Part shown: positions 8,569 through 32,339 of the stretch, piece by piece
Layout: each line of letters starts with the position of its first letter
Numbering within the stretch: position 1 is the stretch's first letter
Source: Alphaproteobacteria bacterium
GTDB taxonomy: Bacteria; Pseudomonadota; Alphaproteobacteria; Thalassobaculales; Thalassobaculaceae
Reading direction: 5' to 3'
Length of the DNA stretch: 34,536 nt
NCBI GenBank assembly: GCA_016780745.1
Contig: JADHLJ010000001.1
Span: 1 to 34,536 of the forward strand
Position numbers and translations under genes: made by a program
Notes under the pieces: generated by a model
What the model saw: the letters and a program-made list of their open reading frames with translations, nothing else
Database searches by the model: none
What the model was told of the DNA's origin: nothing

Positions 8569-10103
<1,535 letters not shown>

Positions 10104-10140
10104 GCGCGGCCTGTAGCGCCGATTTCGGCGAGGAGACGGC

Positions 10141-11022
10141 ATGCCAAGCCTCAAGGACCTAAAAATCCGGATCAACAGCGTCAAGTCGACGCAGAAGATC
10201 ACGTCGGCCATGAAGATGGTCGCGGCCGCCAAGTTGCGTCGCGCCCAGGAACAGGCCGAGGCCGCGCGCCCCTATTCGGCGCGGATGGACCGGATGATCG
10301 CTTCACTCGCCGGCAAGTCGACCGGCGTTGGTGGACCAAAGCTCTTGGCCGGCACTGGAAGCGACGCAACGCATCTTCTGGTGGTCATGACCGCCGACCG
10401 CGGCTTGTGCGGTGGCTTCAACACCTCGATCGTGCGCGCCGCGCGCAATCGGATCCGGGCATTGCAGGGAGAAGGCAAGACCGCCAAGCTTCTCTGTGTC
10501 GGCAAGAAGGGCAAGGACCAACTTCGCCGTGACTATGCTTCCTTGATCGAAGACACGATCGAGGGCGTGGCGCGTAAGAATGTTGAATTCGCCTCGGCCG
10601 ACGAGATCGGTGGCCGGCTGATCCAGATGTATGAGAACGGCGAGTTCGATGTCTGCACCCTGATCTTCAATCGCTTCCAATCGGCGATGACTCAGATCGT
10701 CACGGAGCAGCAGGTGATTCCGGCCAGTGTTCCGGAAGTCGCCAATGACGACGACGCGGGTGCCGCCGGCCTTTATGAGTATGAGCCGGACGAGGAAGGC
10801 ATCCTGGCCGAGTTGCTGCCTCGCAATGTCGCGACGCAGGTTTTCTCCGCGTTGCTGGAGAACACCGCTAGCGAGCATGGCGCGCGGATGAGAGCGATGG
10901 ACAGCGCGACGCGCAACGCCGGCGAAATGATCGATAAGCTGACGCTGACCTATAACCGGACACGTCAGGCATTCATCACCAAGGAGCTGATTGAAATCAT
11001 CTCCGGTGCCGAGGCGCTTTAG
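10141..11022 (+). CDS. atpG: F1 ATP synthase subunit gamma
   Basis: 293 aa. The N-terminus is [36 protein letters not shown] and the C-terminus is [24 protein letters not shown] lies upstream. Confidence 0.97.
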
Positions 11023-12519
<1,497 letters not shown>

Positions 12520-13150: not shown

Positions 13151-16100
13151 ATGAGAGTTGTCGCGCGCGTTTTCATTTTCTTGATCGTCCTTGGGTTCCT
13201 GCTGGGACCCGCGATCTATCTGGCGCGCGACTCCCTAGCGCCGATGGTGGTTTCCCTGTTCGCGAGAACCGGGTTGGGGATCGATGATCTGGGCGATCCG
13301 CGTTTTCGTATCACCCATATAGGACCCAATGGGCTAACCCTCGAGGGTTTGGCCATGGCCGGAGATCTGGTCGAGGCGGATAGTGTCAGCGCCACGTTCG
13401 ATCTCACCGAACTGTCCAAGGGTCGCTTACGGACCCTCGCGATCCGTGGACTGACCATTCGAGCCCGCCTCCAGGATGGCAAGCTCAGTCTTGGCTCCAT
13501 TGAACTACCGCGCCATTCGGAGTCGAAGGAGAAAGCCGAACCTCCTAAGCCGAACCAGTTTCCACTGGATCACCTGGTCCTTGAGGATGTTCGGGTGGTT
13601 GTTACGACGGACACCGATACGATCGAGTTGGCCGGAGACATCGATGTCCACCGAAGCGCTAACGGATCACTTGATTGGTCGGGGGATTTGAGCGCGGGGC
13701 TGTCGAGCGCGCTATTGGGCGGTGGTAAGGCCAAGTTCGGCCTTGTCCTCGACGGAAGCTTGAGCGTGGCGGGTGATATCATCACAACACTCGACCTGAA
13801 ACACGGGGAGGCGCGGTTCCGAGACCTGTCTCTCGCTTCGGCCCGCGGCGGAATTCGCGGCCGGCTGCCTTTCGGCGCGGATCCGACGGTCCGCGCGACG
13901 CTTTCGTTTGACGACGTCGCGGCGCGGAGGATCGTTATTCCTCGACTTTCTCTCGATGTCCATGGACAGGGTCGGTCCGGGACGGTTTCGGCGGTTATTG
14001 GTGATCCGTCATCGGGGGCAAGGGCCTACACAATCGTTGGCGATATCAGCCATGATGAGAACGACCACGCGAAAGTCGCATTTTCCGGGTCGGGCGCGCT
14101 GGGGGTCCTGCATGACTTGTTGGGACCGGCTCTGGGCTCGCCCATACGCGGGATCCGAGGTGACTTGGCATTCAATGGTGAGGTCGGTTTTCGGGGCGCG
14201 ATTGATGACTTCGTTGCGCATCCGGAGAAGGGGTTGGCACAAGCGGTGGGCAGTGGCGCCGCGAAAGTAGCGGTATCGTCCATCGATGTCGGGGGAAATC
14301 CCCACGCCTTGGATATCCGGGGTGGCGTCACGGCCGTCATGGCGCCCGGGTTAATGGAAATAAGGCTGACGGAGAGATCGCGCGCGAGGATACCTAAATC
14401 CACGTCGCGGGTGATCGCGGAATCAGTGCCGCGGATTGTTCAGCCCTGGTTGGTAGGGGGTGCTTCCATCGATTTCGGCTTCGATGACGAGCCGCTTGCT
14501 ATTCTTGCCTCGTTTGGTGGAGAGTCGCCGAAGCTCCGGTTCTCCGGCGGAGCCCGAGCAAGGTTGGGTGGGGGAGGCGTGATTTCGCTCGGTGGAACAG
14601 CAACGGTGGGACCGCCGTCAATCGGCGGCGGTGGGATTTGGAACGCGACTTTCGAGGGCTTGATCTTGCGGGCGGGTGGTCTCGAGGTTGATGGCCATCG
14701 GCTGACGCAAGGCGAGGCCGTCCTCGGTGGCAGGGCCGGGCCGGACGGCATTGCGGGAAGGTTTTCCATCAAGGGGGACGCGACGTTCAGCGATAACGTG
14801 CCCCTGGCGGGGACGACGATACATCTCGATGGCAAACTAGTGAGCGCTGGGCATGAGACCCAAGTCTCCTTGGAGCGCGCTGGCGCAACGCCGCGGCCGC
14901 GGGGGGGCGACGGTGGCGGTTTCACGCTTCTCGAACCCGTTGAGATCTCACAGGCGCCAGGGTTCTCGAGCGTCATCGTTGTCTCCCACGCTAGCGACGG
15001 CCCGCTCCCGCGCTCCTTCGAGACAGCCTGGGAGGTAGGGGTAGTTACGCTCGGGCGACCCGATGACGGCATCGCGAAGGCTGTTAAGCTTGATATCGGT
15101 CGTATCGGTGCGACGTTCGCCAACGCCACGAGCGGCGGCGATGGGCGCTTTGTCTTGAAGCTTGATGGCGCGCGGGTAGATGCCGCGGGTATAGCCGTTC
15201 AGCTCTCGGATTTGATCATAAACGCGGGCTTCAAGGCAGGTGATATTCTCGACGGCCTCACATCCATCGATTCCGCCATTGCCAAGATCGCGTCGATCGT
15301 CGCCCCCCCATGGATCGCGCCTTTGGCATTCAAAATGTCCGGGCAACGCCGGGGACCGGCCCGAGCCCTGGATTTGCAAGGCTCGGTCACCGGCATGACA
15401 TCGTCGCTCGAAATCCCGTTTTCCGGGACGATCCAGTTGAACGATGGTTCTGGCCGCCTTGAGATTGACAAAACCTGGTTGACCTTCGGCCCCGAGGCTT
15501 TGTCCTTAGCGGCCTTGTCGCCGGCATTTTCAACGCATGTGGAGACCATGACGGGCCGGGTCGGGCTGTCGGGGCATGTTGCCTGGCCCGCCGTCGCCGA
15601 TGCGGACGCGGAACGTCTGACAGTTGACGTGGAAGCACTGTCGATGACCGGGACGGGGCTCAGCGTGGAGAACGCCGAGGGTAGCATCTCGTTCTCGAAC
15701 ATCATGCCGTTGCGAAGCGATGGCGTGGGGACGCTATCAATGGATATGCTGGGTGTCGGCGTTCCGATCCCCCGGCCCCGCCTGGAGGTCTCGATCGATG
15801 ACTTGGACGGGATCATGTTGCGGAAGGCTTCGGGCGGGTTCGCGGGCGGGCGGATTTCCACCCGGGATGTCCAAGTTGCGTTTGACGGACCGACAAGCAT
15901 GACGGTCGAGGCGGAAGGCGTGGACGCCGCCGCTATTACATCGATGTTGAAGGTCAAGGGGCTGGCCGCCGAAGGATCGCTTTCGGGGGAGCTCCCGGTC
16001 ACCTGGACGCCTGGCCTGGGGGTTTCGATCATTGACGCGCGCCTGTCCGCCGACGGTCCCGGTAGGGTTCGCTACGAGGCCGGAGGGAAGGACGAGGCGC

Positions 16101-16606: not shown

Positions 16607-16990
16607 ATGTTGCGAATTCCAAACCGACGAGATCGGGGTTTAGGAATCTGGAGCGCGCGGTTGCTCGCGCTCATGCTGATGGCCGTGGTATCAGGCTTCG
16701 CGTTCTCGGCGCCGGCGAACGCGCTTTCGCTTGATGAAGCCCGCGCGCAAGGCCTGATTGGCGAGCAGCCGAACGGATATCTCGGGCTGGTGCCAGGGCA
16801 ATCCAACGCACGGGCCGCGACGCTGGTCGAGCAGATCAACGCTAAACGTCGCGCCGCCTATCAATCAGTGGCGGACAGCAACGGCACGACTTTGAAGTCG
16901 GTCGAAGCACTGGCCGGAAGCAAACTAATTGGTCGGCTCCAACCCGGGCAATGGTTTCGGGACCAGGGCGGTCAATGGCGACGCCGCTGA
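16607..16990 (+). CDS. ydbL: YdbL-like periplasmic protein (DUF1318)
   Basis: The track ORF is 16562..16990. The ATG at 16607 is preceded by a gggggga SD. There is a signal peptide ending SAPANA|LSL. The mature part LDEARAQGLIGEQPNGYLGLV...INAKRRAAYQSVADSNGTTL matches the DUF1318 pattern. Confidence 0.75.
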   Translation: MLRIPNRRDRGLGIWSARLLALMLMAVVSGFAFSAPANALSLDEARAQGLIGEQPNGYLGLVPGQSNARAATLVEQINAKRRAAYQSVADSNGTTLKSVEALAGSKLIGRLQPGQWFRDQGGQWRRR

Positions 16991-18285
16991 CCGGTTGACG
17001 TATCAACCGACGTTATTCGGCCGTAGCGCGCGACATAGGCTTTAAGCTCCTTGGCGACCGCGGCGATGACATTGCGCCAGCTCGCTTCGTCGCCGCCAGC
17101 GCCGTCGGCTTCGGTCATCCGGAACAGCCGCATGGTTGGATACCAGGGCGTGTCGTCCCGCTCCAATAACCAACGCCAGTCCGAATGCCGTCCGAGGAGC
17201 AGCCAGACCGGCTTGCCCATCGCTCCCGCGAGATGGGCAACAGACGTATCGACCGCGATTACAAGGTCGAGGCCGGCGATGACATCGGCGGTATCCGCGA
17301 AATCACGGACCTTGTCACCTAGCGGGGTGACGTTCGACCAAGGTCCCGGCTTGGTACCTGGTCGCCAGCCATATTGAAGGCTTTGAAAGTTCGGTCCTGG
17401 TATCTCAAGGAGCGGTGTCAGGGCGACCTGGGGACAGGACCGCCATTCGTCGCGGGTATTGTCGGGTGTTCCAGCCCATACCAGTCCGACCCGGGGAGGG
17501 TCGGTTGGAGGCCGCCGCGCGGGCGAGGAGAGCGCGTTTAGATACGGAACATCGTCCGGAATCGTTTCGGGTCCCGTGGCGAAGCGGTGCGGCAGGCTCA
17601 TGATCAAGCAGGTGGTATCAAATTCCGGCTGAGCCCCGGTTGAGACGTTATCGATCCATGGCACGGCGGCGAAGAGCCGTGCCAACGTCGGCTGACAATG
17701 CACATAGACGGTCATGCCGGCTTCGGTGAGCGGCCGCGCGTAGCGAATGAATTGGATTGCGTCTCCCGCGCCTTGTTCGGCGATCAGAAGGATGCGTTGG
17801 CCGGGGATGCGTTGACCGTCCCATACCACGCGATGCAGGTCACGCATCTGGGCGGTAAATTCACGGCAAGACTCACGGGTTTCGTATAGCGGCCAGGCAT
17901 TGGTCCAATCACCGGCTTGAAGCATCGCGAGCGATAAACCCGTCATGATCTCCGGACGTGCCTGGTCCAGGCATAGCGCTCTTCGATAGGTGGTGATCGC
18001 GGATGCTGCGTTGTCGAAACTGAATTCGGCGTTGCCGAAATTGTAATAGATCGCGGCGGCTTCGGGCTGAAGCACGAGGGCGCGGCGAAAAGCACGGGTC
18101 ATTCTCTCGCGATTGCCGAGGCCTCGCAGTGATTGGCCTAGCCCCATATAGACCCGAGCGTCGCGCGGGAAGCGCAAGGCAAGCAGGCGATGGCATTGCA
18201 CAGCCTTGTGATGTGCTCGCGCCGCCATGAGTTTTCGGCCCATGGCTAGGCCGTCTTCGAGAGTTCGCCCGCTACCGATCGCCAT
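16972..18285 (-). CDS. TPR-repeat protein fused to a GT9 (heptosyltransferase-like) GT-B domain, paralogue 1
   Basis: 437 aa. The N-terminal part has TPR-like repeats (YMGLGQSLRGLGNRERMTRAFRRALVLQPEAAAIYYNFGNAEF...). The C-terminal part reads WDGQRIPGQRILLIAEQGAGDAIQFIRYA...DTSVAHLAGAMGKPVWLLLGRHSDWRWLLERDDTPWYPTMRLFR, like the LPS heptosyltransferase (GT9) C-terminal nucleotide-sugar domain. It starts 14 nt after the MFP stop. Confidence 0.75.
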   Translation of the reverse strand: MAIGSGRTLEDGLAMGRKLMAARAHHKAVQCHRLLALRFPRDARVYMGLGQSLRGLGNRERMTRAFRRALVLQPEAAAIYYNFGNAEFSFDNAASAITTYRRALCLDQARPEIMTGLSLAMLQAGDWTNAWPLYETRESCREFTAQMRDLHRVVWDGQRIPGQRILLIAEQGAGDAIQFIRYARPLTEAGMTVYVHCQPTLARLFAAVPWIDNVSTGAQPEFDTTCLIMSLPHRFATGPETIPDDVPYLNALSSPARRPPTDPPRVGLVWAGTPDNTRDEWRSCPQVALTPLLEIPGPNFQSLQYGWRPGTKPGPWSNVTPLGDKVRDFADTADVIAGLDLVIAVDTSVAHLAGAMGKPVWLLLGRHSDWRWLLERDDTPWYPTMRLFRMTEADGAGGDEASWRNVIAAVAKELKAYVARYGRITSVDTSTGQRRRH

Positions 18286-18299
18286 GATTTCTGATGGCC

Positions 18300-19658
18300 T
18301 CAGGGTTCCCGCAAGGCCATCTGGAAACTCGCTATCATCGGGGTCATCAGATAACTGAGCAGCGTCTGCTCACCGACCGCGATTAAGCCGGATGCCGGCA
18401 TTCCAGAGGTAAGTTGTTGATCACCGATGGCTTTTCTAAGGGACTCTTGATCCAACCGGACTGTCACGCCGTATAGCGGTCTTCCCTTGGCGGTGGGCAT
18501 CGTGGTCGGCGTAATGCTGACCAATTGCCCGTCAACGGGCGGGGTCAATCGTGGATTGAAGGCGGTTAGCCGCACCTTGACCATCGCACCGGTTTTAACT
18601 TGTTCGATATCCTTGGATTTTAATTTGCCCTTAAGAACCATCTCCTCGTTCTGGGGGACAATTTCCATCAAGACCTGCCCACCGGAAACGACTTGTCCTT
18701 CGTTTCTAATCTGCAGGTTCATCACCCGTCCATTCGCGGGGGCTTTTACGTCGATCCGAGACTTCTGGTCCGCCAGAACTCCAACATTCTCGCGACGTCG
18801 CGCAATCTCGGGATCGAGCTGATTTAAACGGCCGAGATTCCTAGTTCTCTCGGATTGTAATCGGGCCTCAATCGCCAGCCTACGCTCACCCAGTTTTTGA
18901 TTGATTTGGGCAATTGCCTCTCCGATGGTGCCTTGTTGACCGAGCAGTCCGGTTCTGGCGCGTTTAATCGCCAGGAGGCGCGATTTCGTCGTGAGCCGTT
19001 TGTCGTAAAGTTGCTGAACGGACGCGAGTTCCTCATCGATCAAGGCGAGAGAGTCTTCGACGGTCTTCATCCTGATATCGTATGAACGAAGCTCGGTCTC
19101 GATTTGCGCGATTTGTTCAAACTGAATTTCCAGGGTCTTTGCCTTGCTGGTGCGCAACTCTTCAAAAAGTTTCACCTCGCTGTCGATAATTTTCCCGTAG
19201 ACGGGATTTTTCCGTGCTTGGGTTAACTCGGCATCCAGAGACAGGGCCGTCTCGTCGGCGAGCTCGGCATGCACTCTCGCTCGTTCCGCCAACAATGATA
19301 CCAGCGAAGATTCTTGAGCCAGGGCCTGTGCATCCGTGCGAAGCGGGTCCAGGCGCGCGAGAACTTGTCCTCGCGAGATTCGTTCCCCGTCGCGCACGAG
19401 GATCTCGCGTACTAATCCACCTTCAAGATGCTGGACTGTCTTGACCCCGGAATCGACTTCAATGGACCCAGCCACATTGACACCGCTCGCCAAGGGCGCG
19501 AAGGCGGCCCACCCGCCCAAGCCGCCAAAGAACAACAAAATGATGGTGTAGCCGAATGCACTTGCTCCCGCCCATGTTGGTTTTCCAGGGCGATCCGTCA
19601 AGGAAACGGATAAGGGGCGACCGGGTAGGGTTTGTTGATCTACGGTTTGAAGGGACAT
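18300..19658 (-). CDS. Type I secretion membrane fusion protein (HlyD family)
   Basis: 452 aa. It has a single N-terminal TM helix (FGYTIILLFFGGLGGWAAFAPL), a long coiled-coil middle region, and a C-terminal beta-barrel/lipoyl-like region ending LLSYLMTPM. The ATG lies 7 nt after the ABC gene stop. Confidence 0.9.
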   Translation of the reverse strand: MSLQTVDQQTLPGRPLSVSLTDRPGKPTWAGASAFGYTIILLFFGGLGGWAAFAPLASGVNVAGSIEVDSGVKTVQHLEGGLVREILVRDGERISRGQVLARLDPLRTDAQALAQESSLVSLLAERARVHAELADETALSLDAELTQARKNPVYGKIIDSEVKLFEELRTSKAKTLEIQFEQIAQIETELRSYDIRMKTVEDSLALIDEELASVQQLYDKRLTTKSRLLAIKRARTGLLGQQGTIGEAIAQINQKLGERRLAIEARLQSERTRNLGRLNQLDPEIARRRENVGVLADQKSRIDVKAPANGRVMNLQIRNEGQVVSGGQVLMEIVPQNEEMVLKGKLKSKDIEQVKTGAMVKVRLTAFNPRLTPPVDGQLVSITPTTMPTAKGRPLYGVTVRLDQESLRKAIGDQQLTSGMPASGLIAVGEQTLLSYLMTPMIASFQMALREP

Positions 19659-19665
19659 CGGTCAC

Positions 19666-21435
19666 TCACGCGTTAGCTGGACTGGTTACGACGTTGATTG
19701 CTCGATCGTCGGGCTGTTTGCTTCCACCGCCGCCGCCAAGAATTGGAAGCATCTCTTCCCTAGGGCCGATGCGCTGAATTTTACCATCCACCAGCACCAT
19801 TACATAGTCCAGGACCTTTAGGATATTTGGTCTGTGCAAGATCAAAACGACGGTTACGCCGCGCCGCTTTAACTCTTCAATCGCCGCCGCGAGCGCTTCT
19901 TCGCCATGGGCGTCGAGATTGGCGTTCGGTTCGTCCAAAACCACGAGCTTTACATCGCCATAGAGCGCGCGGGCCAAGCCAACACGCTGCATCTGCCCCC
20001 CCGACAATAGCGTGCCACCATTGCCGACAACGGTCTGATAGCCTTGGGGCATGAACTTGACCATCGTGTCGACATTGGCGAGACGGGCGGCGTCCAGGAT
20101 TCTTTCGCTGGTCCAGTCGTCGGCTTGTCGCGCGATATTGTCGCGTACCGTTCCGCCGAATAACTCAACATCCTGAGGCAGATAGCCGATATGGGCGCCG
20201 AGGTCGACCGATGGCCATTCATGTAGATGCGAGCCATCGAGTTTCACGGATCCGGCGCTTGGTCGATCGAGGCCCACGAGAAGTCGGGCCAAGGTCGACT
20301 TGCCGGAAGCGGAAGGACCGACGATCCCCAAGGACTCTCCGGGCTTCAGCGAAAAGTCGATGTCTTTCAAAACTGGTTCAGGCGCCGAGGGAGGATGGAA
20401 ATTCAATCCTTCAACCTTCAGTTCCCCTTGGGGGGCGGGCGGCGTTTCTTGCTGGGCCGGTGTCCGCGCGGCGGCCTGTCGCAGCGCCGCCGACAAGGCC
20501 TTGTAATCACCTATCGCTTCGTTGATCGGCGCCCAGCCGGTGACCAGAAACTGCACCGGCATTAGGACACGCCCCACGAGGATGACCGATGCCATCATTG
20601 CACCGCGTGACAAATTGGTGTCGGGGTGGATGATCAGGATCGCGCAAACGGTCATGATTGCCATCATCGAGCCGAACTGCATGGTTTTGCCGACCGCCGC
20701 CATCAGTCCCATGCGTCTCGTGAAGATCGCGAGCCTATCGAGAGCGACATCGTTGTCCTGCTCCCAACGGCGCCCGACCCGTGCGCCCATCCCCATGGCT
20801 TCGATGACGTCGGCGTTGCGCAGGCTTACCTCGGCCTTGCGATTGGACTCGCCCATCGCGGCCAGGCCGACCTCGCGAACCGGACCGGTCGCCCATTTGT
20901 TGGCGAGCGCTAGGAAGAGAATGAACACGGCGATCGTCGTGGCGGCGACGCCGATCCAGAACTGTAAGAAGAAAAGAAATGCCAGAAATAACGGCACCCA
21001 CGGTAGGTCCATGACCATGAAGATTTGTTCGCCGGCTAGGAAGTTCCGGAGGGAATCCATGCGGCTCAGAAGTTCCGTGTCACGTCTTGATCCACGCGCC
21101 GTGGCGTTGCGCAAGGAAAGCGCGAAAATTTTTCGCCCGATCTGGTGGGCGATCCATGAACTTACACGCACGAACAAATAGGTGCGCGCGATATCAATCA
21201 CGGCCTGGATAAGAAGGGCGGATAACGCGAAGAGCGCCAGGAACGTGAGGGTAAACTGGTTGCCACCACCGCCCAAGACACGGTCGAAAAGCGAGAACAT
21301 ATAGACAGGCATGACCAATATGAGGGCATTGACGAAAAAGCTGAAGATCGCGGCGGTCGCGAACGCCCCGCGCGCCGCCCACAGCATCTCCTTCAGGGGA
21401 TCGCCACCTGACGCGGTCTTGGTTCCTGCGGCCAT
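19666..21435 (-). CDS. Type I secretion system permease/ATPase (PrtD/AprD/RsaD type, no C39 peptidase or CLD domain)
   Basis: 589 aa. It has an N-terminal 6-TM domain (FSFFVNALILVMPVYMFSLFDRVL), Walker A GPSASGKST, ABC signature LSGGQMQR and Walker B LVVLDEPNANLD. An AGGTGA SD lies 5 nt upstream of the ATG. Confidence 0.92.
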   Translation of the reverse strand: MAAGTKTASGGDPLKEMLWAARGAFATAAIFSFFVNALILVMPVYMFSLFDRVLGGGGNQFTLTFLALFALSALLIQAVIDIARTYLFVRVSSWIAHQIGRKIFALSLRNATARGSRRDTELLSRMDSLRNFLAGEQIFMVMDLPWVPLFLAFLFFLQFWIGVAATTIAVFILFLALANKWATGPVREVGLAAMGESNRKAEVSLRNADVIEAMGMGARVGRRWEQDNDVALDRLAIFTRRMGLMAAVGKTMQFGSMMAIMTVCAILIIHPDTNLSRGAMMASVILVGRVLMPVQFLVTGWAPINEAIGDYKALSAALRQAAARTPAQQETPPAPQGELKVEGLNFHPPSAPEPVLKDIDFSLKPGESLGIVGPSASGKSTLARLLVGLDRPSAGSVKLDGSHLHEWPSVDLGAHIGYLPQDVELFGGTVRDNIARQADDWTSERILDAARLANVDTMVKFMPQGYQTVVGNGGTLLSGGQMQRVGLARALYGDVKLVVLDEPNANLDAHGEEALAAAIEELKRRGVTVVLILHRPNILKVLDYVMVLVDGKIQRIGPREEMLPILGGGGGSKQPDDRAINVVTSPANA

Positions 21436-21564
21436 TGAATCACCTGAGTCAAACCAGCCTCTTCGCTAGAGGCCATGAATTCGCTTATTTGAGCCACCGG
21501 GCCGACGCATACGCGCGATACGACGTTATATCGTCGCCCGCTTGTCGGTAATGGTGCATCGTGT

Positions 21565-21594
21565 TTGACGACCCACCACGGTCGACCTTATTTA
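21565..21594 (+). promoter_or_regulatory. Candidate sigma-70-type promoter for the rightward glycosyltransferase genes
   Basis: TTGACG (21565-21570), an 18-nt spacer, then TATTTA (21589-21594). It sits in the 200-nt divergent intergenic region between the T1SS ABC gene and the GT4 gene. This is a pattern match only. Confidence 0.25.
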
Positions 21595-21637
21595 GGCTTT
21601 CCAGGGGATTGCCGCAAATGAATTCGGTATCCGCCGA

Positions 21638-22921
21638 ATGTCGAGGAAAAGGCGACTTTACGTGAAAATTCTGTTTGTTCACCAGAACATGCCGGGCCAA
21701 TACAAGCATCTGGCCCCCGCCTTGGCCGCCAACCCGGCGAATGAAGTGGCGTTCATCACCAAGGAAGGCAAGCCCGACCTGCCCGGCATCAGGAAAGCGA
21801 CGTATAAACTTACCCGTGAGCCTAGCAAGGGGATCCACCAATATCTGACCCGACTGGAGGACCAGGTCCTGCACGGACAGGGTGCTGTTCGCGCCGCCCT
21901 CGAATTGGCGGAAAGCGGGTTTGTTCCAGATGTGATCTGCGCTCATACGGGGTGGGGGGAGGCGCTATTCCTGAGAGATGTCTTCCCGAATTCCCGAATC
22001 CTGGCATTTTCCGAATTCTATTATTCCTCGAAGGGCGCGGATATCGACTTTTCGCCGGATCATAAACCGGATCTCGATCGTGATTGCCGTACCCGCATGC
22101 GCAACACCCATATGCTCATGAGTCTGGAGGCCGCCGACTGGGGTATCAGCCCGACCCGATGGCAATGGAGTCGGCATCCGTCTTTCGTCCGTGATCGTAT
22201 TTCGGTTATTCACGAAGGCGTGGACACTGACTTGTGCACCGCCGACCCCAAGGCAGTGCTTGAGCTACCCAATGGCATGACGCTGTCCAGAGACGATGAA
22301 GTGGTTACGTATCTCGCCCGAAATCTGGAGCCCTATCGCGGCTTTGACATCTTCATGCAAAGTATCAACGGCATTCTTGAACGTAGGCCGAACGCGCGCA
22401 TTGTGTTGGTGGGCGGGGACGACGTCAGTTACGGCAATCCCCCGCCCAATGGTGAGAATTGGCGGAACTTCATGTTGGCGCGCACCAGATTTGACCCGCG
22501 CCGCGTGCATTTTTTTAATCGTGTGCCGTATTCCGTTTTTCAGCAGGTGTTGTCGATTTCAAAGGCGCATGTCTATCTGACCTATCCTTTCGTGCTGTCC
22601 TGGTCGATGTTGGAGACCATGAGCCACGAATGCATGCTGATTGCGTCAAAAACCGCGCCCGTGACCGAGGTTGTCGAGGACGGCGTCAACGGTCGCCTGG
22701 TATCCTTTCACAATCCGGCCGAGATAACCGATGCGGTGGTTTGGGCCTTGGAGAACCAGGATGCCACGGTCAAGTACCGCAAGGCCGCGCGCGAAACCAT
22801 CGTCGAGAAATACGATCTTCGAAAAGTGTGCTTGCCGGCGCAGGTCGATCTCGTCTCCACACTCGCGGAAGGGCGAACGCCGCCGCTGATGGACCCGACA
22901 TGGACGGCCGCGACGGCTTGA
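21638..22921 (+). CDS. Glycosyltransferase, GT4-like (GT-B fold)
   Basis: 427 aa from the ATG at 21638. An alternative GTG at 21662 is preceded by aggaaaagg. The N-terminus is KILFVHQNMPGQYKHLAPAL...HTGWGEALFLRDVFP and the C-terminal half is typical GT-B (VLVGGDDVSYG..., LETMSHECMLIASKTAPVTEVVEDGVNG). Confidence 0.8.
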   Translation: MSRKRRLYVKILFVHQNMPGQYKHLAPALAANPANEVAFITKEGKPDLPGIRKATYKLTREPSKGIHQYLTRLEDQVLHGQGAVRAALELAESGFVPDVICAHTGWGEALFLRDVFPNSRILAFSEFYYSSKGADIDFSPDHKPDLDRDCRTRMRNTHMLMSLEAADWGISPTRWQWSRHPSFVRDRISVIHEGVDTDLCTADPKAVLELPNGMTLSRDDEVVTYLARNLEPYRGFDIFMQSINGILERRPNARIVLVGGDDVSYGNPPPNGENWRNFMLARTRFDPRRVHFFNRVPYSVFQQVLSISKAHVYLTYPFVLSWSMLETMSHECMLIASKTAPVTEVVEDGVNGRLVSFHNPAEITDAVVWALENQDATVKYRKAARETIVEKYDLRKVCLPAQVDLVSTLAEGRTPPLMDPTWTAATA

Positions 22922-24549
22922 TGATCAGGGCCCGGGAAGCGCTTTCCCGAGGTGACACGGATGCGGCGTCCCGCGCCTTTCGCGCCTGTATCTGTAGCGA
23001 GCCGGAACAGGCGAGAGGCTACTTTAATGTCGGCGTGCTTTTTGGCCGTGGTGACTATCCCGGGGCCGCGGAGGCGGTTTATCGCCGGGCCCTTCTAATC
23101 GAGCCGGTTCACGAAGGCGCTCTCGGTAACCTCGCGGATCTTTTGTTGTTCGCCGGTCGTGACGTCGAGGCGGAGACGCTTTGCGCCGTTGCCTCTCGGA
23201 GGGCGCCACTTTCCGGAAAAATTCAAGGCAATTTGGCTCTTCTTCGTCTGCGGCGCGGCGCGAGGGATGAAGCGGGGTTGAACATCCGGCGCTCTCTTTG
23301 CGCGGAGCCGGGCTACGCGAAGGCTTGGGGGATCATGGCAATGCTGCGCCACGATGACGGTCTCGTCGCCGAGACCGCTTATGGTCGCGCTTGGTCGAGT
23401 GGTGCGCGCGATCCCGGGCTGCTAGCCAATCGTGGTGAAATCGCGCAACGCGAAGGGCGCATCGGCGCGGCGATGGAATTTTACAATCAGGCGTTGGCGA
23501 TGGCGCCGGGCGACGCGGATATCTTGGCGAATCTCGCCACGGCGAGCATCGACGACGGCGATTTCCGCGCCGCGTCCCGCCATGCGGCGGCGGCTCTGCG
23601 GATCGATCCGGGCCATCGCGTCGCGCGTTGGATCGAAGACTGGGTGTCCCTTGCACATCGCGATTTTGAAACTGGCTTCCGTAGTTTTGATGAGACATGG
23701 CGCGCGCCCGATCAAGACGCTCCGGCGAATGCGACGGCCTACCCTCTTTGGGAAGGGGGACGACTTGATGGTCCGCTTCTGTTGTGGTGCGAGCACGGGC
23801 TTGGCGACGAGATCCTTTACGCTGGCATGATCGACGATGTGTTGTCCTTGGGCGTTGATGTTGTGCTGGAAGCTGATCCGCGGTTGGTGCCCTTGTTTCA
23901 ACGATCCTGGCCCGTGGCGCGGGTGATCGGACGGGGAGGGGCGATACCACCGGGCATCGTCGCTCAGTCCTCGGTTTTGCGACTGCCGATGTTGTTTCGT
24001 CGAACGCTTGCGGATTTCCCCGCGCGATCATCATATCTGATCGCCGATCCGGCAAAGGTCGCGACGTACCGGGAACTATTCAAACAATCCGATCGGGAAA
24101 CCGTCATTGGAATTTCCTGGCGTTCTGGAAATCTCCGTACCGGCGCGGGCAAATCCACGCGCTTAAAGGATTGGGACGCGTTGCTGGACCTGCCGGGCGC
24201 GCAATTCCTAAGCCTACAATACGACGATGGCGGCGAGACCGACCCTCGTGTGGCGTGCAACCCGAGCGACGATACGAAAAACGATCTCGAAGATCTCGCG
24301 GCTCAGATCGCGGCGCTCGATCACGTCGTTTCAATATCCGGGGTGACCGCGCATCTCGCCGGGGCGTTGGGCGTGCCAGGGCACGTCCTGCTGCCGCCGG
24401 CGCCGCTCTGGTTCTGGTTCGCCGAGGGGGGGGATTGTCCGTGGTATCCAGCTCTTACACTCGGGCGGCGTGCCCATGGCGAGGATTGGCCCCCGGCGGT
24501 CGCGCGACTTGCGGCGGCGACGCGGGCATTCTTAGCGAACCAACGGTGA
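22921..24549 (+). CDS. TPR-repeat protein fused to a GT9-like domain, paralogue 2
   Basis: The track ORF 22630..24549 overlaps the upstream gene. The in-frame ATG at 22921 shares its A with the GT4 TGA stop (TGATG). It has TPR-like repeats (AEAVYRRALLIEPVHEGALGNLADLL..., AMEFYNQALAMAPGDADILANLA...). The C-terminal part reads LLLWCEHGLGDEILYAGM...VTAHLAGALGVPGHVLLPPAPLWFWFAEGGDCPWYPALTL. Confidence 0.75.
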   Translation: MIRAREALSRGDTDAASRAFRACICSEPEQARGYFNVGVLFGRGDYPGAAEAVYRRALLIEPVHEGALGNLADLLLFAGRDVEAETLCAVASRRAPLSGKIQGNLALLRLRRGARDEAGLNIRRSLCAEPGYAKAWGIMAMLRHDDGLVAETAYGRAWSSGARDPGLLANRGEIAQREGRIGAAMEFYNQALAMAPGDADILANLATASIDDGDFRAASRHAAAALRIDPGHRVARWIEDWVSLAHRDFETGFRSFDETWRAPDQDAPANATAYPLWEGGRLDGPLLLWCEHGLGDEILYAGMIDDVLSLGVDVVLEADPRLVPLFQRSWPVARVIGRGGAIPPGIVAQSSVLRLPMLFRRTLADFPARSSYLIADPAKVATYRELFKQSDRETVIGISWRSGNLRTGAGKSTRLKDWDALLDLPGAQFLSLQYDDGGETDPRVACNPSDDTKNDLEDLAAQIAALDHVVSISGVTAHLAGALGVPGHVLLPPAPLWFWFAEGGDCPWYPALTLGRRAHGEDWPPAVARLAAATRAFLANQR

Positions 24550-24560: not shown

Positions 24561-25241
24561 CTAGGCGAGGCGATCTCGCTCGGCTAACCAAAGATCCGCG
24601 TAGTCCACGTGCCGCCAGTTCTCGAACCAGGGCCCGCCGCGTGTGAAGTGGATGGCGCCGGGCGCCCGTTCCGGATCTGGACTGTCCCAACCCTCAAGCC
24701 AATTCCATGTCGGGTCAAGACCGCCGATCTCCGCGTCGTCGACCCACTGAAAACGGTGCAAATAAGCGCCGGATTGTGTGTTCGCCGTTTCCACGTTGAG
24801 CTTGCGAGTGGCCGGGTGACTACAATTCAATAACATCAGGCTCGACCAGTTTTTACGTGGGTAGACGGACTGGGTCTGGCCATCCATCTTGACCGTTTCC
24901 CTCGGGCGATAGTCGTGCTGGACACACATTACGGCGTATTTCTCGTCCGCTTTCGCGAAAATCTCGGCGACGTCGCGAGTCCAGAGAAAATCGCAATCGC
25001 AGAACAGTGCCCAGCCTTCGTATCCCGCGAGATGGGGGACCAGAAACCGAGTGTAGGTAAACTCGGTCGAAGCTAGGGGGTCGACATCCCGATGATACAA
25101 GCCACGTTCGCGCAGGTCGTCCTGGATGATTGGCGTAATGTGGAGCGTGGCGTTGGAATGTCGCTCGAGAGAGGCGCGGCAAACATCAAAGGCTTCGGGC
25201 TCTCGACTGTCCCATCCAACGTATATCCGCAATGCGCTCAT
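24561..25241 (-). CDS. Putative GT-A fold glycosyltransferase (GT8-like, DXD = DCD)
   Basis: The track ORF is 24561..25376. The likely start is the ATG at 25241 (MSALRIYVGWDSREPEAFDVC...). The internal sequence STEFTYTRFLVPHLAGYEGWALFCDCDFLW has a DXD-type motif, followed by ...YPRKNWSSLMLLNC. It resembles small GT8-like transferases. The family call comes from motif memory only. Confidence 0.5.
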   Translation of the reverse strand: MSALRIYVGWDSREPEAFDVCRASLERHSNATLHITPIIQDDLRERGLYHRDVDPLASTEFTYTRFLVPHLAGYEGWALFCDCDFLWTRDVAEIFAKADEKYAVMCVQHDYRPRETVKMDGQTQSVYPRKNWSSLMLLNCSHPATRKLNVETANTQSGAYLHRFQWVDDAEIGGLDPTWNWLEGWDSPDPERAPGAIHFTRGGPWFENWRHVDYADLWLAERDRLA

Positions 25242-25423
25242 TCCATTCTCCGGCCCCGGCCCGGTGGCGATCCAGGATCGGCGAGTGATAGCGAACCTGC
25301 CTAGCCAAGGCAACGCGGCAATCCGCCCGGGTTGCCCGCCGCTCTCGACATCCATCCCCATCTCGGATAAAGCCAAGCGCTGATTTCAACGTTGCTTTCA
25401 TCCTATGTTTGGTCATCTCTAGA

Positions 25424-27094
25424 ATGTCCCCACGACCGAATTGCGCGATCAACTACCACCCCGACGGTTACAAGGCGGATCGGGAACAGGTTAAAGGGCG
25501 GCATGCCGCCGGCGCCGGCTTCCTGAAAGGCTTCATTGATCACTCCGGGGTGGACCGGCTCGTCGCGATGACCCCGTCCAAGACGCATTTCGAGGACTTC
25601 CGGAATGTTGCCCGGGCGCTTGATCCCGCTGGGCGCGAAGCGGTCTGGGCTCGCCCATTGGACGCGCGGGTCCTGCGCGAGGTTGGCGCGATTTTCATGC
25701 CTGGCCCAGGTTTCGAGGACGAGGCATGGAACAGGCGCCTCGGAAATGAGCGGGATTACAGTCTCTGCGGTCTTACCCACACTGTTGCCTCGGATCGGGT
25801 CATCAATGCGCTGGGCCGTTATCTCGTCGCGCCAACGCAGCCCTGGGATGCGCTTATCTGTACCTCCACGTCGGTACGCGCGGTTGTTGAACGGGTCATC
25901 GAGAGCCACGCGGATTATCTCGCCGAGCGAAGTGGCACCCGTTTCGAGAATCCCGTTCAGCTTCCAGTGATACCACTCGGAGTTGATTGTGATTTTCACG
26001 CGCGGAGTGATGCTAGTCAGGGCGCGGGCGCGGATTTACGGCGGCGATTGGGTATTGCGGAAGATGATCTGGCGGCGCTTTTTCTCGGGCGTTTGTCGTT
26101 TCACGCGAAGGCACATCCAACGCCAATGTTGATGGCAATGGAACGCGCCGCGCGTCGAACGCCGGATCAAACGCTTCATCTCGTCATTGTTGGGCAGTTC
26201 CCAAATCAGTGGATCGAGAAGGAATTCAAGGATGCCGCCAAGCGGTTCTGCGGCGCCGCGCGGGTCCACATTCTGGACGGCGCGAGCCATGAGGTCGTTC
26301 GCGCGGCCTGGAGCGGTTCCGATATCTTCATCTCGTTGTCCGATAATATTCAGGAGAGCTTCGGGCTGACGCCGATCGAGGCAATGGCGGCCGGCCTTCC
26401 TTGCGTCGTTTCGGACTACGACGGCTATAAGGATACAGTGGTGGATGGCGAAACCGGTTTTCGGATCCCGACCACCGCCCCCGGCCCAGGAGCAGGCGTC
26501 GATATCGCCGATCGATACGGTATCGGCCTGGACAGCTACGATCGCTTCATAGGTATCGCCGCCTTGTCGACGATGACGGATGTTGATGCCTGCGCCGAGG
26601 CGATCAGCCGTCTCGCGACGGATCGGGATTTGCGCGCCCGCATGAGCGCGGCTGGTGTGGAGCGGGCTAGGCGTTTCTATGACTGGCGGGTTGTCGTGGA
26701 GTCATACCAGGACCTTTGGGCGGAACTCGCGGAGCTTCGATCCGGCGCCCAGGGGATCGGTATTCGCAACCACGCGACACAGGCCGCGAAAGTTGACTTC
26801 CCCGACCCTTTCGACATGTTTCAAGGGCATCCAAGCAGGCTCTTGACCGAGAATAGCGTGGTCGCCTTCAAGAGTAAGTCTCCGGCGCGAGACCTCGAGA
26901 TTGTGCGGATGGGAGAGTTGCATACTTTTGTGTCCTATGCCCTTCTGCCCGAGCCGTCGCTTGACGCGTTGATGGAGGAGTTGAGCGCGGGGCCGAAGAA
27001 AGTCGGGGACCTTGCCGCCTTCTCGCGTGACGGGCGCAAACTGCTGCGCACCCTGGCGTGGTTGGGCAAGTTTGATTTGGTGGAGTTCAAATGA
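25424..27094 (+). CDS. Glycosyltransferase family 4 (retaining GT-B) with extended N-terminal domain
   Basis: The track ORF begins at TTG 25409; the first ATG is at 25424 (MSPRPNCAINYHPDGY...). The EX7E motif is in ESFGLTPIEAMAAGLPCVVSDYDGYKDTVVDGETGF. About 556 aa. Confidence 0.85.
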   Translation: MSPRPNCAINYHPDGYKADREQVKGRHAAGAGFLKGFIDHSGVDRLVAMTPSKTHFEDFRNVARALDPAGREAVWARPLDARVLREVGAIFMPGPGFEDEAWNRRLGNERDYSLCGLTHTVASDRVINALGRYLVAPTQPWDALICTSTSVRAVVERVIESHADYLAERSGTRFENPVQLPVIPLGVDCDFHARSDASQGAGADLRRRLGIAEDDLAALFLGRLSFHAKAHPTPMLMAMERAARRTPDQTLHLVIVGQFPNQWIEKEFKDAAKRFCGAARVHILDGASHEVVRAAWSGSDIFISLSDNIQESFGLTPIEAMAAGLPCVVSDYDGYKDTVVDGETGFRIPTTAPGPGAGVDIADRYGIGLDSYDRFIGIAALSTMTDVDACAEAISRLATDRDLRARMSAAGVERARRFYDWRVVVESYQDLWAELAELRSGAQGIGIRNHATQAAKVDFPDPFDMFQGHPSRLLTENSVVAFKSKSPARDLEIVRMGELHTFVSYALLPEPSLDALMEELSAGPKKVGDLAAFSRDGRKLLRTLAWLGKFDLVEFK

Positions 27095-28887: not shown

Positions 28888-28899
28888 TTGGACTTCGGA

Positions 28900-32294: not shown

Positions 32295-32339
32295 CGAACC
32301 GCGCGGTAAATCAGTTGCGACCCAAAAAGGATAAGGACG

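Follow-up and report, generated by a model that had tools for sequence, protein, structure and literature searches.

The type I secretion (T1SS) operon of the window (the whole stretch of DNA that was analysed, 34,536 nucleotides) provides the export arm of a conserved island for cytoplasmic glycosylation, which spans at least 17.5 kb. Besides the operon, this island encodes two additional TPR-GT9 paralogs, five further glycosyltransferases (GTs) predicted to be soluble, and a predicted sugar-acid activation pathway. The best reading of this arrangement, which we hold tentatively and at slightly less than an even chance, is that an RTX cargo would be glycosylated in the cytoplasm ahead of its type I export, in the way that flagellin is by FlmG.

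The three genes of the operon lie head-to-tail on the minus strand: an ABC permease/ATPase of the PrtD/ExpD1 type (19666–21435, 589 aa), a membrane-fusion protein (MFP) of the HlyD/ExpD2 type (18300–19658, 452 aa), and a TPR-bearing, GT9-like GT-B glycosyltransferase (16972–18285, 437 aa). Both junctions were read directly, with a gap of 7 nt between ABC and MFP (...GCG TGA gtgaccg ATG) and of 14 nt between MFP and TPR-GT (...CCC TGA ggccatcagaaatc ATG), as a sequence-only reading of this DNA had given them together with the open reading frames. The ABC protein matches TIGR01842 (type_I_sec_PrtD; 552.9 bits, cut-off 510), ABC_membrane, and ABC_tran, and has six hydrophobic segments; because the TIGR01842 alignment begins at residue 20, it has no N-terminal peptidase (C39) or CLD domain, again in agreement with that reading. 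The MFP matches TIGR01843 (308.6 bits, cut-off 208.65) and has one N-terminal TM segment. That the three genes form a single transcript, as was also proposed, is very probable because their tight spacing is conserved across relatives. No sigma-70-like sites were found on the minus strand at the two junctions, which is weak evidence, and the ten minus-strand terminator-like matches (6.1 ± 2.8 by chance; three lie within the ABC gene) are at chance level and likewise weak evidence on transcript unity. The ABC gene is separated from a divergent PF12000 GT4 gene by 202 bp (21436–21637, sequence read), presumed to be a bidirectional promoter region, in which a sigma-70 consensus was not found; this divergent layout is kept in all orthologous loci.

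For the third gene of the operon, modelling points confidently to a TPR + GT-B enzyme of the cytoplasm, in keeping with the earlier prediction of a cytoplasmic GT with a TPR module. Its product has no signal peptide or credible TM segment, and matches TPR_11 (29.3 bits, cut-off 26.8) and Glyco_transf_9 (PF01075; 26.5 bits, cut-off 22), the latter over residues 329–372 only. The AF2 model (pLDDT 89.5) shows TPR helices from 9 to 149 and then two Rossmann-like halves. Searched with Foldseek, the whole chain matches OGT and SPINDLY best (E 7e-11 to 1e-7, with low TM-scores of 0.28–0.35 and 9–16% sequence identity), the GT domain gives its top TM-score with WaaF (1psw, 0.43/0.55), and the matches also include 8qoy, a capsule polymerase with TPRs. 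The motifs E170-Q-G-x-G-D175 and D346-T-S-x-A-H351...G357-K-P are invariant or nearly so in 27 TPR-GT orthologs at 41–99% identity, and the retention of these GT9-type motifs argues for a conserved active site.

The operon GT had been taken as the pump's sole partner; it is indeed the only GT in the ABC-MFP operon, but not the only glycan-related partner, because the 17-kb side is a dense glycosylation island. Beyond the operon, its genes lie on the plus strand, with one exception. The divergent GT4 glycosyltransferase (21638–22921, 427 aa) has a Glyco_trans_4_3 N-domain (PF12000, 1.5e-63), is an ExpC/WgcA homolog, and is the most conserved island protein relative to Azospirillum (58–61% identity). 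The second TPR + GT9-like paralog (22900–24549, about 549 aa, TPR families; start taken as ATG 22900, with 22921 also possible; orthologs in relatives 546–561 aa) is 28% identical to the operon GT over the GT domain (E = 7e-22), and the third (27091–28887, 598 aa, TPR families) is 33% identical over 398 aa (E = 5e-56). Between them lie a minus-strand gene for a conserved soluble protein (24561–25241, 226 aa) and a GT4/GT1-type glycosyltransferase (25409–27094, 561 aa; Glycos_transf_1 9.3e-24), which has homologs in Azospirillum clusters (40–42%) and in Niveispirillum (41%), there directly after an RTX gene. The 226-aa protein has no family match in Pfam, NCBIfam, PADLOC, or PDB, yet occupies the same position in L084, L085, L088, L104, and L105, and its DxD-like motif, CDCDF, hints that it may be a GT-A-type transferase. 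Further along are an EryCIII/MGT-like GT-B glycosyltransferase (28888–30108, 406 aa; PF06722 1e-6, below cut-off, and weak NCBIfam MGT-family matches) and a class I-beta DAHP-synthase-like aldolase (30110–31018, 302 aa; DAHP_synth_1 4.7e-47), a candidate 3-deoxy-ulosonic acid synthase for the glycan, with NCBIfam scores of 303 bits for NF006421 (cut-off 335), 260 for TIGR01361 (cut-off 267.75), and only 78 for KDO8P_synth. These are followed by a weakly assigned methyltransferase-like protein (31107–32294, 395 aa; Methyltransf_25/31 E about 1e-4, below cut-offs), the least conserved island protein relative to the close relative L088 (76%), a shikimate-dehydrogenase-like oxidoreductase (32340–33230, 296 aa; Shikimate_dh_N and Shikimate_DH, every aroE-type NCBIfam match below cut-off), a SAF-domain protein (33238–33741, 167 aa; PF08666 weak) kept in L088 and L004, and a soluble GT2 glycosyltransferase (33738–34418, 226 aa; Glycos_transf_2 2.8e-20). 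Past the window's end, L088 and L004 carry two cytidylyltransferases (CTP_transf_3/PseF-like) and a TPR-methyltransferase. On the 3' side the flank consists of core genes, as had been noted, namely ydbH-like and DUF1318 genes and the atpHAGDC operon; in relatives a Lipoprotein_19/ynbE-like gene lies between the ydbH-like and DUF1318 genes.

The linkage of pump and GT is not specific to this strain, a point that the sequence-only reading had left to be checked: 9 of the 10 orthologous loci retain the order ABC-MFP-(GT1)-TPR-GT, at identities as low as 41%. Five other contigs of the window's lineage share this order and strand, with no gap above 15 nt (GT 57–72% aa identity), three Azospirillum loci have the same order with one extra GT1 gene inserted (41–46% identity), and spacing comparably tight to the window's is seen in eight related loci. 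Because order, strand, and tight gaps recur in this way, the adjacency is more than chance. The replicon context differs, from a chromosomal site next to the atp operon in the marine lineage to a replicon with RepA in Azospirillum. The exception is L004, an orthologous locus in a MAG, which keeps the TPR-GT and sugar genes and has no T1SS. Among 79 loci with TPR-GT paralogs from other phyla, none has a homolog of the ABC-MFP pair alongside, and one has an RTX ORF. In Azospirillum, TPR-GT9 paralogs are abundant in glycan islands without any T1SS, and on plasmids they and PF12000 GTs lie beside pseB/pseC, also without a T1SS.

None of the window's ORFs of 100 aa or longer has four or more GGxGxD-type motifs, none of the 40 window ORFs scanned against Pfam belongs to the OEP/TolC family, and no RTX or TolC gene lies within 10 kb past the window's right end in the close relative (76–98% aa identity), which bears out the earlier remark that no RTX-like or TolC-like gene is nearby. 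In Azospirillum (A. halopraeferens and two Azospirillum sp. contigs), an RTX gene lies between two further TPR-GT9 genes, 2.5–2.6 kb from the ABC-MFP-TPR-GT operon, and encodes a protein of 511–526 aa with 15–17 GGxGxD motifs and a conserved C-terminus (...VQGVST.D..DF.F). The proposal that cargo is modified before export fits this nested gene, but finds no counterpart in the window, where a cargo gene is lacking.

We know of no demonstrated case in which a T1SS cargo is glycosylated by a cytoplasmic GT; by analogy, precedents can be named for each half separately, FlmG for a TPR-GT that acts before export and SwmA and oscillin for glycosylated RTX proteins. FlmG, the flagellin O-glycosyltransferase of Caulobacter crescentus and Brevundimonas, is a soluble, cytoplasmic TPR + GT-B protein whose TPR binds the export substrate and which modifies it ahead of secretion, with a CMP-activated ulosonic acid from neighbouring genes as donor (PMC7591256; bioRxiv 10.1101/2022.03.25.485807). 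Its substrate, however, leaves via the flagellar type III apparatus and not a T1SS, and its gene is not in an operon with its exporter. The PseF-like cytidylyltransferases and PEP-aldolase-family enzyme of the island are reminiscent of the CMP-nonulosonate route in flagellin glycosylation. OGT and SPINDLY (GT41) and the bacterial OGT homologs likewise have a TPR superhelix and then a GT-B catalytic domain, but that of the operon GT is closer to GT9 (WaaF 1psw). The GT9 heptosyltransferases WaaC and WaaF share PF01075 and matching motifs (N-terminal G-D; C-terminal D-(T/S)-x-x-x-H-L-A...G-x-P), but have no TPR domain, and ADP-heptose pathway genes are absent from the island. The autotransporter heptosyltransferases TibC and Aah are GT9-like enzymes able to glycosylate secreted proteins in the cytoplasm, although they serve type V rather than type I secretion. 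Glycosylated RTX proteins exist in nature, likened here by description: the cyanobacterial surface proteins SwmA and oscillin are reported as glycoproteins in a review that does not describe their glycosyltransferases or the compartment of modification (PMC3034196).

It had been claimed that no characterised T1SS has a GT wired into it, and here the S. meliloti exp/wg cluster is a precedent. A GT-linked T1SS is not unprecedented because the window's PF12000 GT4, ABC protein, and MFP match ExpC, ExpD1, and ExpD2 (41, 41, and 31% identity; the GT4 also matches S. medicae ExpC at 41%) and share their divergent layout. On annotated plasmids of Sulfitobacter and Polaromonas, too, a PF12000 GT gene comes third or fourth in a T1SS operon, and PF12000 GT4 homologs adjoin T1SS and RTX genes in Polaromonas, Sulfitobacter, Phaeobacter, and Niveispirillum. 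The exp order is ExpC (WgcA, GT4), ExpG, ExpD1/ExpD2 (T1SS), ExpE1 (secreted, RTX-like), and further glycosyltransferases (ExpE2-E8). As in the window, genes for glycosyltransferases and methyltransferases surround the T1SS, and no flippase or polymerase is annotated in the 25 kb of pSymB inspected, for which the gene table is incomplete. ExpC is read as a polysaccharide galactosyltransferase, mutation of expD1 or expD2 blocks EPS II, and the same T1SS secretes ExpE1 (PMC1403797). The main rival reading, possible though we consider it unlikely, is that the island is a galactoglucan-type exopolysaccharide system. Its GTs would build a secreted polysaccharide, the ExpD-like T1SS would export, as for EPS II of S. 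meliloti, an RTX-like accessory protein needed to make the polysaccharide and possibly the polymer as well, and the TPRs would organise an enzyme complex instead of binding a protein acceptor. Three observations point the same way: rfb/GDP-mannose genes and glycosyltransferases also surround the closest plasmid-borne ABC homologs, a polysaccharide pyruvyl transferase gene adjoins the Phaeobacter homolog, and the TPR-bearing polymerase 8qoy is one of the fold matches. Against it, the window lacks parts specific to exp, namely the MarR regulator gene expG between the divergent genes, the RTX gene after the MFP gene, rfbABCD, pyruvyl transferase, and an ExpE2/E4-type homolog; what it has and the exp cluster does not is a TPR-GT9 in the pump operon, two TPR-GT9 paralogs, and the DAHP-synthase-like/cytidylyltransferase sugar-acid pathway. 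Three TPR-GT paralogs plus the TPR-methyltransferase of relatives form a pattern typical of protein-directed enzymes, and polysaccharide export through a PrtD-type T1SS has, to our knowledge, never been demonstrated.

Two further explanations separate the third gene from the modification of T1SS cargo or from catalysis. The TPR-GTs might glycosylate a protein that does not use the T1SS, such as flagellin (as FlmG) or pilin, with the pump a mere neighbour serving an unrelated RTX protein and co-transcription meaningless. The only characterised bacterial TPR + GT-B enzyme with CMP-ulosonic donors acts on flagellin, and both the pseB/pseC plasmid loci and L004 have such GTs without the pump; we nonetheless find this improbable, as order, strand, and tight or overlapping junctions persist at 41–46% identity between a marine chromosome and an Azospirillum RepA replicon, no flagellar or pilus gene occurs in the window or any related locus examined, and the Azospirillum RTX gene is nested between TPR-GT genes. 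It is very improbable that the third gene acts mainly without catalysis, as a TPR chaperone or quality-control adaptor of the T1SS cargo or the ABC protein, and has a degenerate GT-like domain: TPR chaperones of secretion substrates exist elsewhere, its match to the LcrH/SycD profile is weak (27 bits, cut-off 105), and its Pfam GT9 match is short (44 residues) and weak, but a complete GT-B fold is modelled with high confidence and the G-D and D-T-S-x-x-H...G-K-P motifs are invariant in the 27 orthologs.

Glycosylation of an RTX cargo before export is favoured because the ABC protein and MFP are the island's only membrane proteins, because the whole chain best resembles two protein glycosyltransferases, OGT and SPINDLY, in fold, and because the Azospirillum RTX gene is nested between TPR-GT9 genes. 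The same two membrane proteins remain the only ones when 10 kb past the window's right end in L088 are included, and no flippase, polymerase, polyprenyl-phosphate priming GT, or OPX/PCP was found in either. Several observations count against it: a cargo gene is missing from the window and from those 10 kb, polysaccharide is the product of S. meliloti exp, the one homologous cluster that has been characterised, TPR + GT-B proteins are not confined to protein acceptors (8qoy), and Azospirillum TPR-GT9 islands and L004 exist without a T1SS. In addition, unfolded chains pass a narrow duct in T1SS, so bulky glycans may not fit.

Under cargo glycosylation ahead of export, soluble island enzymes would produce activated sugars, including a CMP-activated 3-deoxy-ulosonic acid; the TPR domains of the three TPR + GT-B enzymes would hold a still-unfolded RTX-type substrate, to which these and the GT4/GT2 enzymes would attach a short glycan in the cytoplasm. 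The decorated protein would then be exported by the ExpD1/PrtD-type ABC protein, the MFP, and a TolC encoded elsewhere, and a TPR-GT within the pump operon may keep modification and export in step. The cargo gene would lie outside the island in the window's lineage and inside it in Azospirillum. Sugar-coated exported calcium-binding proteins exist in nature; if the reading is true, this pump/GT operon would point to how such a protein is coated with sugar.

Type I secretion systems (T1SSs) are usually seen as exporters of unmodified, unfolded polypeptides, the acylation of RTX toxins being the exception. In the window, a T1SS pump and a glycosyltransferase with tetratricopeptide repeats (TPR) are linked in one operon, and this linkage is real, conserved, and beyond chance. 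The three minus-strand ORFs lie where the sequence-only reading had placed them, and the gaps it gave are borne out by direct reading of the DNA, with TGA-gtgaccg-ATG at the ABC/MFP junction (7 nt) and TGA-ggccatcagaaatc-ATG at the junction between the MFP and the glycosyltransferase (14 nt). The first gene (19666-21435, minus strand) encodes a 589-aa T1SS ABC protein of the PrtD class, scoring 552.9 bits with TIGR01842 against a cut-off of 510. Because the match begins at residue 20 (residues 20-563 of 589), the protein has no peptidase (C39) or CLD N-domain; a hydropathy scan gives it six hydrophobic segments, and as a half-transporter with a TMD and an NBD it belongs with PrtD, AprD, and ExpD1. 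The HlyD-type T1SS adaptor (MFP; 18300-19658, minus strand, 452 aa) scores 308.6 bits with TIGR01843 (cut-off 208.65), and its adjoining the ABC gene across the 7-nt gap is a further feature of the T1SS class. The third gene (16972-18285, minus strand) encodes the 437-aa TPR-GT, with N-terminal TPR matches and a short Glyco_transf_9 match. A promoter and terminator consensus scan gave nothing above shuffle expectation: it found no sigma-70-like site on the minus strand at either junction, and the number of terminator-like sites in the window did not exceed that of shuffled sequence, both being weak evidence.

The earlier claim that RTX-like and TolC-like genes are absent within 17 kb on one side of the pump was upheld for the whole window: four or more GGxGxD-type motifs occur in none of its ORFs of 100 aa or longer, nor in any ORF of its close metagenomic relative L088, and none of the 40 window ORFs scanned matches the TolC/OEP family. 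TolC-type genes are often missing from T1SS loci, so this absence is no argument against membership. A 153-aa ORF upstream of the ABC gene (21485-21946, minus strand) was rejected as cargo, since it has no family match, overlaps the GT4 gene on the other side of the spacer by ~300 nt, and is uncalled in every relative. On its 3' side, the operon converges on a DUF1318 (ydbL-like) gene preceded by a ydbH-like gene, with atpHAGDC beyond. The 3' ends of the TPR-GT and DUF1318 genes overlap by 19 nt (16972-16990), because the TPR-GT C-terminus in the window is extended by ~13 residues or more relative to most orthologs. In L085, a contig of the same lineage, the ydbH-like and DUF1318 genes are lacking and the glycosyltransferase lies nearer atpC; the ydbH adjacency is therefore incidental. 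GC content falls to 0.56-0.57 in the stretch covering the T1SS operon and the first divergent genes (18001-23000), compared with 0.60-0.68 in core genes, and the Azospirillum counterpart sits on a replicon beside a RepA gene, both of which are consistent with horizontal movement of the module. Elsewhere in the window, a 383-aa ORF (1765-2916, minus strand) falls in a kilobase whose GC content drops sharply to 0.449, the surroundings being at about 0.60-0.68, and immediately follows a gene of the XerC/phage-integrase family (2921-3877, minus strand); it has no match in Pfam, PADLOC, or PDB, and the region looks like a small foreign insertion.

The PF01075 match of the TPR-GT is marginal (26.5 bits against a cut-off of 22) and covers residues 329-372 only (profile positions 174-217 of 247), and a PDB sequence search matched the TPR repeats alone. 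An AlphaFold2 model built on 27 orthologs (mean pLDDT 89.5, pTM 0.87) has TPR-like helical pairs at residues 9-149, followed by the two Rossmann-like halves of a GT-B domain. When the whole chain was compared with the PDB using Foldseek, bacterial and human OGT and plant SPINDLY ranked first (E 7e-11 to 1e-7); the best TM-score in the list was that of LPS heptosyltransferase II, WaaF (1psw; 0.43/0.55 for the catalytic part, rmsd 5.4, 350 columns), and a TPR-bearing capsule polymerase was also among the matches. Family searches of the window and the L088 extension found no heptose-pathway genes in the island. In the ortholog alignment, E170-Q-G-x-G-D175 and D346-T-S-x-A-H351...G357-K-P are invariant or nearly so from 99% down to 41% identity; we take the former to be the GT9 N-terminal catalytic Asp motif and the latter to be the C-terminal nucleotide-sugar motif, and their conservation argues for the TPR-GT being an active enzyme. 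It has no signal peptide and, by hydropathy scan, no credible transmembrane segment. A soluble protein with N-terminal TPR and C-terminal GT-B domains, as given by the model and the scan, has the architecture of the flagellin glycosyltransferase FlmG, whose TPR domain binds flagellin and whose GT-B domain determines donor specificity (PMC7591256; bioRxiv 10.1101/2022.03.25.485807).

The 17 kb on one side of the pump, in which the sequence-only reading had noted no RTX-like, S-layer-like, or TolC-like gene, are a glycan island with two more TPR-GT9 paralogs. Across a 202-bp spacer containing no ORF, a series of glycan genes diverges from the ABC gene. It opens with a GT4 enzyme with a PF12000 (Glyco_trans_4_3) N-domain (GT4_3; 21638-22921) and a second TPR protein (TPR2; about 22900-24549), includes a 561-aa GT4/GT1 enzyme, a third TPR protein (TPR3; 27091-28887), an EryCIII-like glycosyltransferase, a DAHP-synthase-like aldolase, a methyltransferase-like protein, a shikimate-dehydrogenase-like protein, and a SAF-domain protein, and has a GT2 enzyme as its last member in the window; a conserved 226-aa protein on the opposite strand, between TPR2 and the 561-aa enzyme, has no match in PDB, PADLOC, or Pfam. 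TPR2 and TPR3 share the GT9-like C-terminal domain of the operon TPR-GT, to which they are 28% (E = 7e-22) and 33% identical (over 398 aa, E = 5e-56), respectively. In L088 (76-98% aa identity), the island continues beyond the window end with genes for two cytidylyltransferases, of which one is PseF-like, and for a TPR-methyltransferase, FAD oxidase, aminotransferase, SDR, and split transketolase, and this extension contains no RTX gene. Across the window's island and the L088 extension, the hydropathy scan finds credible transmembrane segments in the ABC protein and MFP only, and the island therefore has many soluble glycosyltransferases and exactly one inner-membrane route. The far end of the island encodes a TPR + SAM-methyltransferase fusion of 392-395 aa in L088 (12040-13218, plus strand) and in the marine alphaproteobacterial MAG contig L004 (2111-3298, minus strand); this is one more enzyme that bears a protein-binding module, and it may modify the same acceptor.

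The aldolase, aroE-like dehydrogenase, SAF protein, and two cytidylyltransferases (one PseF-like) are grouped (window 30110-33741 and L088 10678-12050). PseF-like/CTP_transf_3 cytidylyltransferases lie just past the window end in both L088 and L004 and the aldolase lies in the window, with no PseB/C/I or LegI. The class I-beta DAHP-synthase-like aldolase scores slightly under curated cut-offs; its assignment as KdsA was rejected, since class I-beta DAHP synthase fits far better (303 vs 78 bits). The likely product of this group of genes would be a CMP-activated 3-deoxy-heptulosonic-type sugar acid, and not aromatic amino acids, Kdo, or a nonulosonate.

The broad TPR-GT family holds more than 7,800 proteins at E <= 1e-10, usually annotated as [quoted passage not shown]. 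All clear orthologs (53-99% identity) come from metagenomes, and Azospirillum proteins come next at 41-46%. Of ten orthologous loci examined (six from the window's lineage, three from Azospirillum, and L004), nine have the pump linked to the enzyme. Within the lineage (the window, the P0011 contig, L084, L085, L104, and L105), the order is ABC-MFP-TPR-GT, the two gaps measure 7-8 and 13-15 nt, and GT4_3-TPR2 is divergent from this operon. The Azospirillum loci (L001, L086, and L106) read ABC-MFP-GT1-TPR-GT, with ABC and MFP separated by 6 nt or overlapping by 4 nt, and with GT1/TPR-GT overlaps of 1-4 nt. The exception is L004 (CALMRI010000007.1; 62% identity), where the TPR-GT ortholog (5393-6412, plus strand) lies between the atp operon and sugar genes, and where the ABC and MFP genes and the next six (GT4_3, TPR2, the 226-aa protein, GT1, TPR3, and the EryCIII-like glycosyltransferase) are missing, owing either to a genuine deletion or to an error of assembly. 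The L004 island remnant contains an IS1595 transposase, and its aldolase gene is seemingly split into several ORFs. As a paralog control, an ortholog-alignment search of genome contigs with one genome per species returned one ortholog (L004) and 79 paralog loci (35-43% identity) from cyanobacteria, Acidobacteriota, Planctomycetota, and others. None of the 79 has a homolog of the ABC-MFP pair within 10 kb, so the association is clade-specific and no property of the whole family; a TPR protein near a T1SS in Skermanella was rejected as a further case, as it is no TPR-GT9. An RTX-like ORF occurs near the paralog in one locus of the 79, that of Oscillatoriales cyanobacterium USR001 (contig L039; ORF 14436-15647, TPR-GT 8930-11248). 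This is a filamentous cyanobacterium, and oscillin, an RTX glycoprotein, has been described from the same group.

Candidate cargo comes from Azospirillum, where a putative T1SS substrate with RTX repeats is encoded near the pump in the orthologous loci. The A. halopraeferens locus (strain DSM 3675, contig AUCF01000009.1, 126345-147580) has a TPR-GT of 411 aa in the operon. Its candidate cargo, encoded 2.6 kb downstream of the pump operon, is a 511-aa protein in which GGxGxD nonapeptides fill almost the whole chain, with 17 motifs and a content of 23.5% Gly and 14% Asp, and which has the C-terminus ...VQGVSTLDLDDFQF; orthologs in two other Azospirillum contigs have in common the N-terminus MANITGTTSS and the C-terminus YL.L.(V/I)QGVST.D..DF.F. 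The RTX gene has genes for TPR proteins (638-793 aa) on both sides, and the two that were checked, those of A. halopraeferens (742 and 793 aa), both bear a GT9-like domain. The island of the window's lineage holds no RTX cargo gene, and an ortholog search with the Azospirillum RTX protein gave only generic matches driven by the repeats; the cargo of this lineage must be encoded elsewhere or be a protein of a kind not recognisable here.

The claim that a glycosyltransferase linked to a T1SS is without characterised precedent fails on the S. meliloti galactoglucan (EPS II) exp cluster, whose pSymB ExpC, ExpD1, and ExpD2 are 41, 41, and 31% identical to the window's proteins, and in which, as in the window, the GT4 gene diverges from ABC-MFP in the same orientation. 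To our knowledge, this cluster is the only studied example of a PF12000-T1SS association, and the role of the T1SS there is still unexplained. ExpC has been described as a galactosyltransferase, and ExpD1/ExpD2 as a PrtD/PrtE-like T1SS secreting the calcium-binding protein ExpE1 (PMC1403797). The published description of the cluster has ExpG as a MarR-type activator, and the Sinorhizobium annotation places a MarR gene and then the GT4 gene on one side, and HlyD, a calcium-binding protein, a glycosyltransferase, a methyltransferase, and a GT4 on the other, with rfbABCD and pyruvyl transferase genes near the locus. In contrast, the window has no ExpG in its 202-bp spacer, its MFP is followed by TPR-GT9 rather than by an RTX gene such as expE1, and a family scan finds no rfbABCD, pyruvyl transferase, or ExpE2/E4/A2/A3 glycosyltransferase families. 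Besides GT4_3, ABC, and MFP, no window protein matches the Sinorhizobium locus L114 at 55 bits or more.

No island protein is better conserved between the window and Azospirillum than GT4_3 (58-61%), which has plasmid-borne homologs at 39-53% identity. Across alpha- and beta-proteobacteria, PF12000 GT4 genes are repeatedly found next to T1SS genes, large RTX genes, or both, and two of them belong to the T1SS operon itself, as its third or fourth member: in Sulfitobacter mediterraneus, the homolog is third (ABC-HlyD-GT), among calcium-binding and DUF4214 proteins, and in Polaromonas JS666 it is fourth (ABC-HlyD-TolC-GT), divergent from a large calcium-binding protein gene. It is divergent from the gene of a 2,565-aa "type I secretion C-terminal target" protein in Methylobacterium aquaticum and from ABC-MFP-RTX in S. 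meliloti and S. medicae, it lies between RTX + 561-type glycosyltransferase genes and ABC-MFP in Niveispirillum, and in Phaeobacter inhibens it is within 10 kb of a calcium-binding protein-ABC-HlyD run. The A. lipoferum 4B homolog has an RTX gene nearby, the flank's only T1SS being of the peptidase-domain type, and no RTX or T1SS gene was found near the homolog in the A. brasilense Sp7, Ralstonia, and Bradyrhizobium representatives. In L101, from the A. lipoferum 4B plasmid AZO_p6, an aspartyl/asparaginyl beta-hydroxylase gene (15135-15818) is divergent from the GT4_3 homolog and clusters with pseB and with genes for an aminotransferase, a flippase, and an 848-aa calcium-binding protein, a hint that RTX-type proteins undergo further post-translational modification. 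Sugar genes also surround the closest plasmid-borne ABC homologs (38-41%), with a calcium-binding protein gene, rfbC-ABC-HlyD, a glycosyltransferase, and GDP-mannose genes in Rhodospirillum rubrum, and rfbA-ABC-HlyD in Haematospirillum. Our literature search found no paper on a PF12000 GT4 beside T1SS/RTX genes, and nothing specific on a T1SS-linked TPR glycosyltransferase or on PF12000. The window stands apart in carrying a TPR-GT9 within the pump operon, in having this enzyme in triplicate, and in its putative sugar-acid pathway, and we rate the locus as a glycan-linked T1SS of the ExpC/ExpD type combined with FlmG-like TPR glycosyltransferases.

Taken together, we tentatively favour, at a little under even chances, a reading in which the island decorates the T1SS cargo in the cytoplasm: the TPR domains would recognise the acceptor cargo, and the T1SS would export it once decorated. 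This reading draws on the FlmG-like architecture, the OGT- and SPINDLY-like fold, the RTX gene nested between TPR-GT genes in Azospirillum, the TPR-methyltransferase of the relatives, the lack of lipid-carrier machinery in the island, and the natural occurrence of glycosylated RTX proteins, SwmA and oscillin, for which a review names neither the modifying enzyme nor the compartment (PMC3034196). However, the island of the window's lineage has no cargo gene, TPR-GT9 paralogs are plentiful in T1SS-free glycan islands, L004 retains the TPR-GT without the pump, and the fold matches include a TPR-bearing capsule polymerase. The sequence-only proposal of cargo modification before export is plausible, with comparative support from the Azospirillum RTX gene among TPR-GT genes; the claimed lack of precedent was overstated.

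The main rival, a possibility to which we give lower odds, is that the island makes a polysaccharide whose production needs the T1SS and an RTX accessory protein, as for EPS II. It is supported by the homology to the exp cluster, whose layout the window shares, and by the polysaccharide genes that surround related pumps, but the exp-specific parts are all absent from the window, and we know of no PrtD-type T1SS that has been shown to move polysaccharide. It is unlikely that the TPR-GT acts on an unrelated acceptor such as flagellin, the substrate of FlmG, and highly improbable that it is a non-catalytic chaperone, the conserved GT9 motifs being those of a predicted active enzyme. Within the favoured reading of cargo decoration, a more specific and rather doubtful version is that cytoplasmic TPR-GTs capture unfolded RTX cargo and add an unusual CMP-activated 3-deoxy-heptulosonic-type sugar, maybe the island's whole glycan, and that the glycoconjugate exits via the T1SS.

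If the same held for ExpC/ExpD/ExpE1, this would account for the dependence of galactoglucan production on a T1SS and a secreted RTX protein, and it would supply the missing glycosylating enzymes for RTX proteins like SwmA and oscillin. The locus and its Azospirillum relatives offer a compact test case, with a pump, a co-transcribed TPR-GT, its paralogs, a putative donor pathway, and, in a cultured species, a candidate cargo, and the cultured relative allows a direct test of secretion-coupled RTX glycosylation. If true, this would be a new class of secretion-coupled protein glycosylation, usable for glyco-engineering of secreted proteins.
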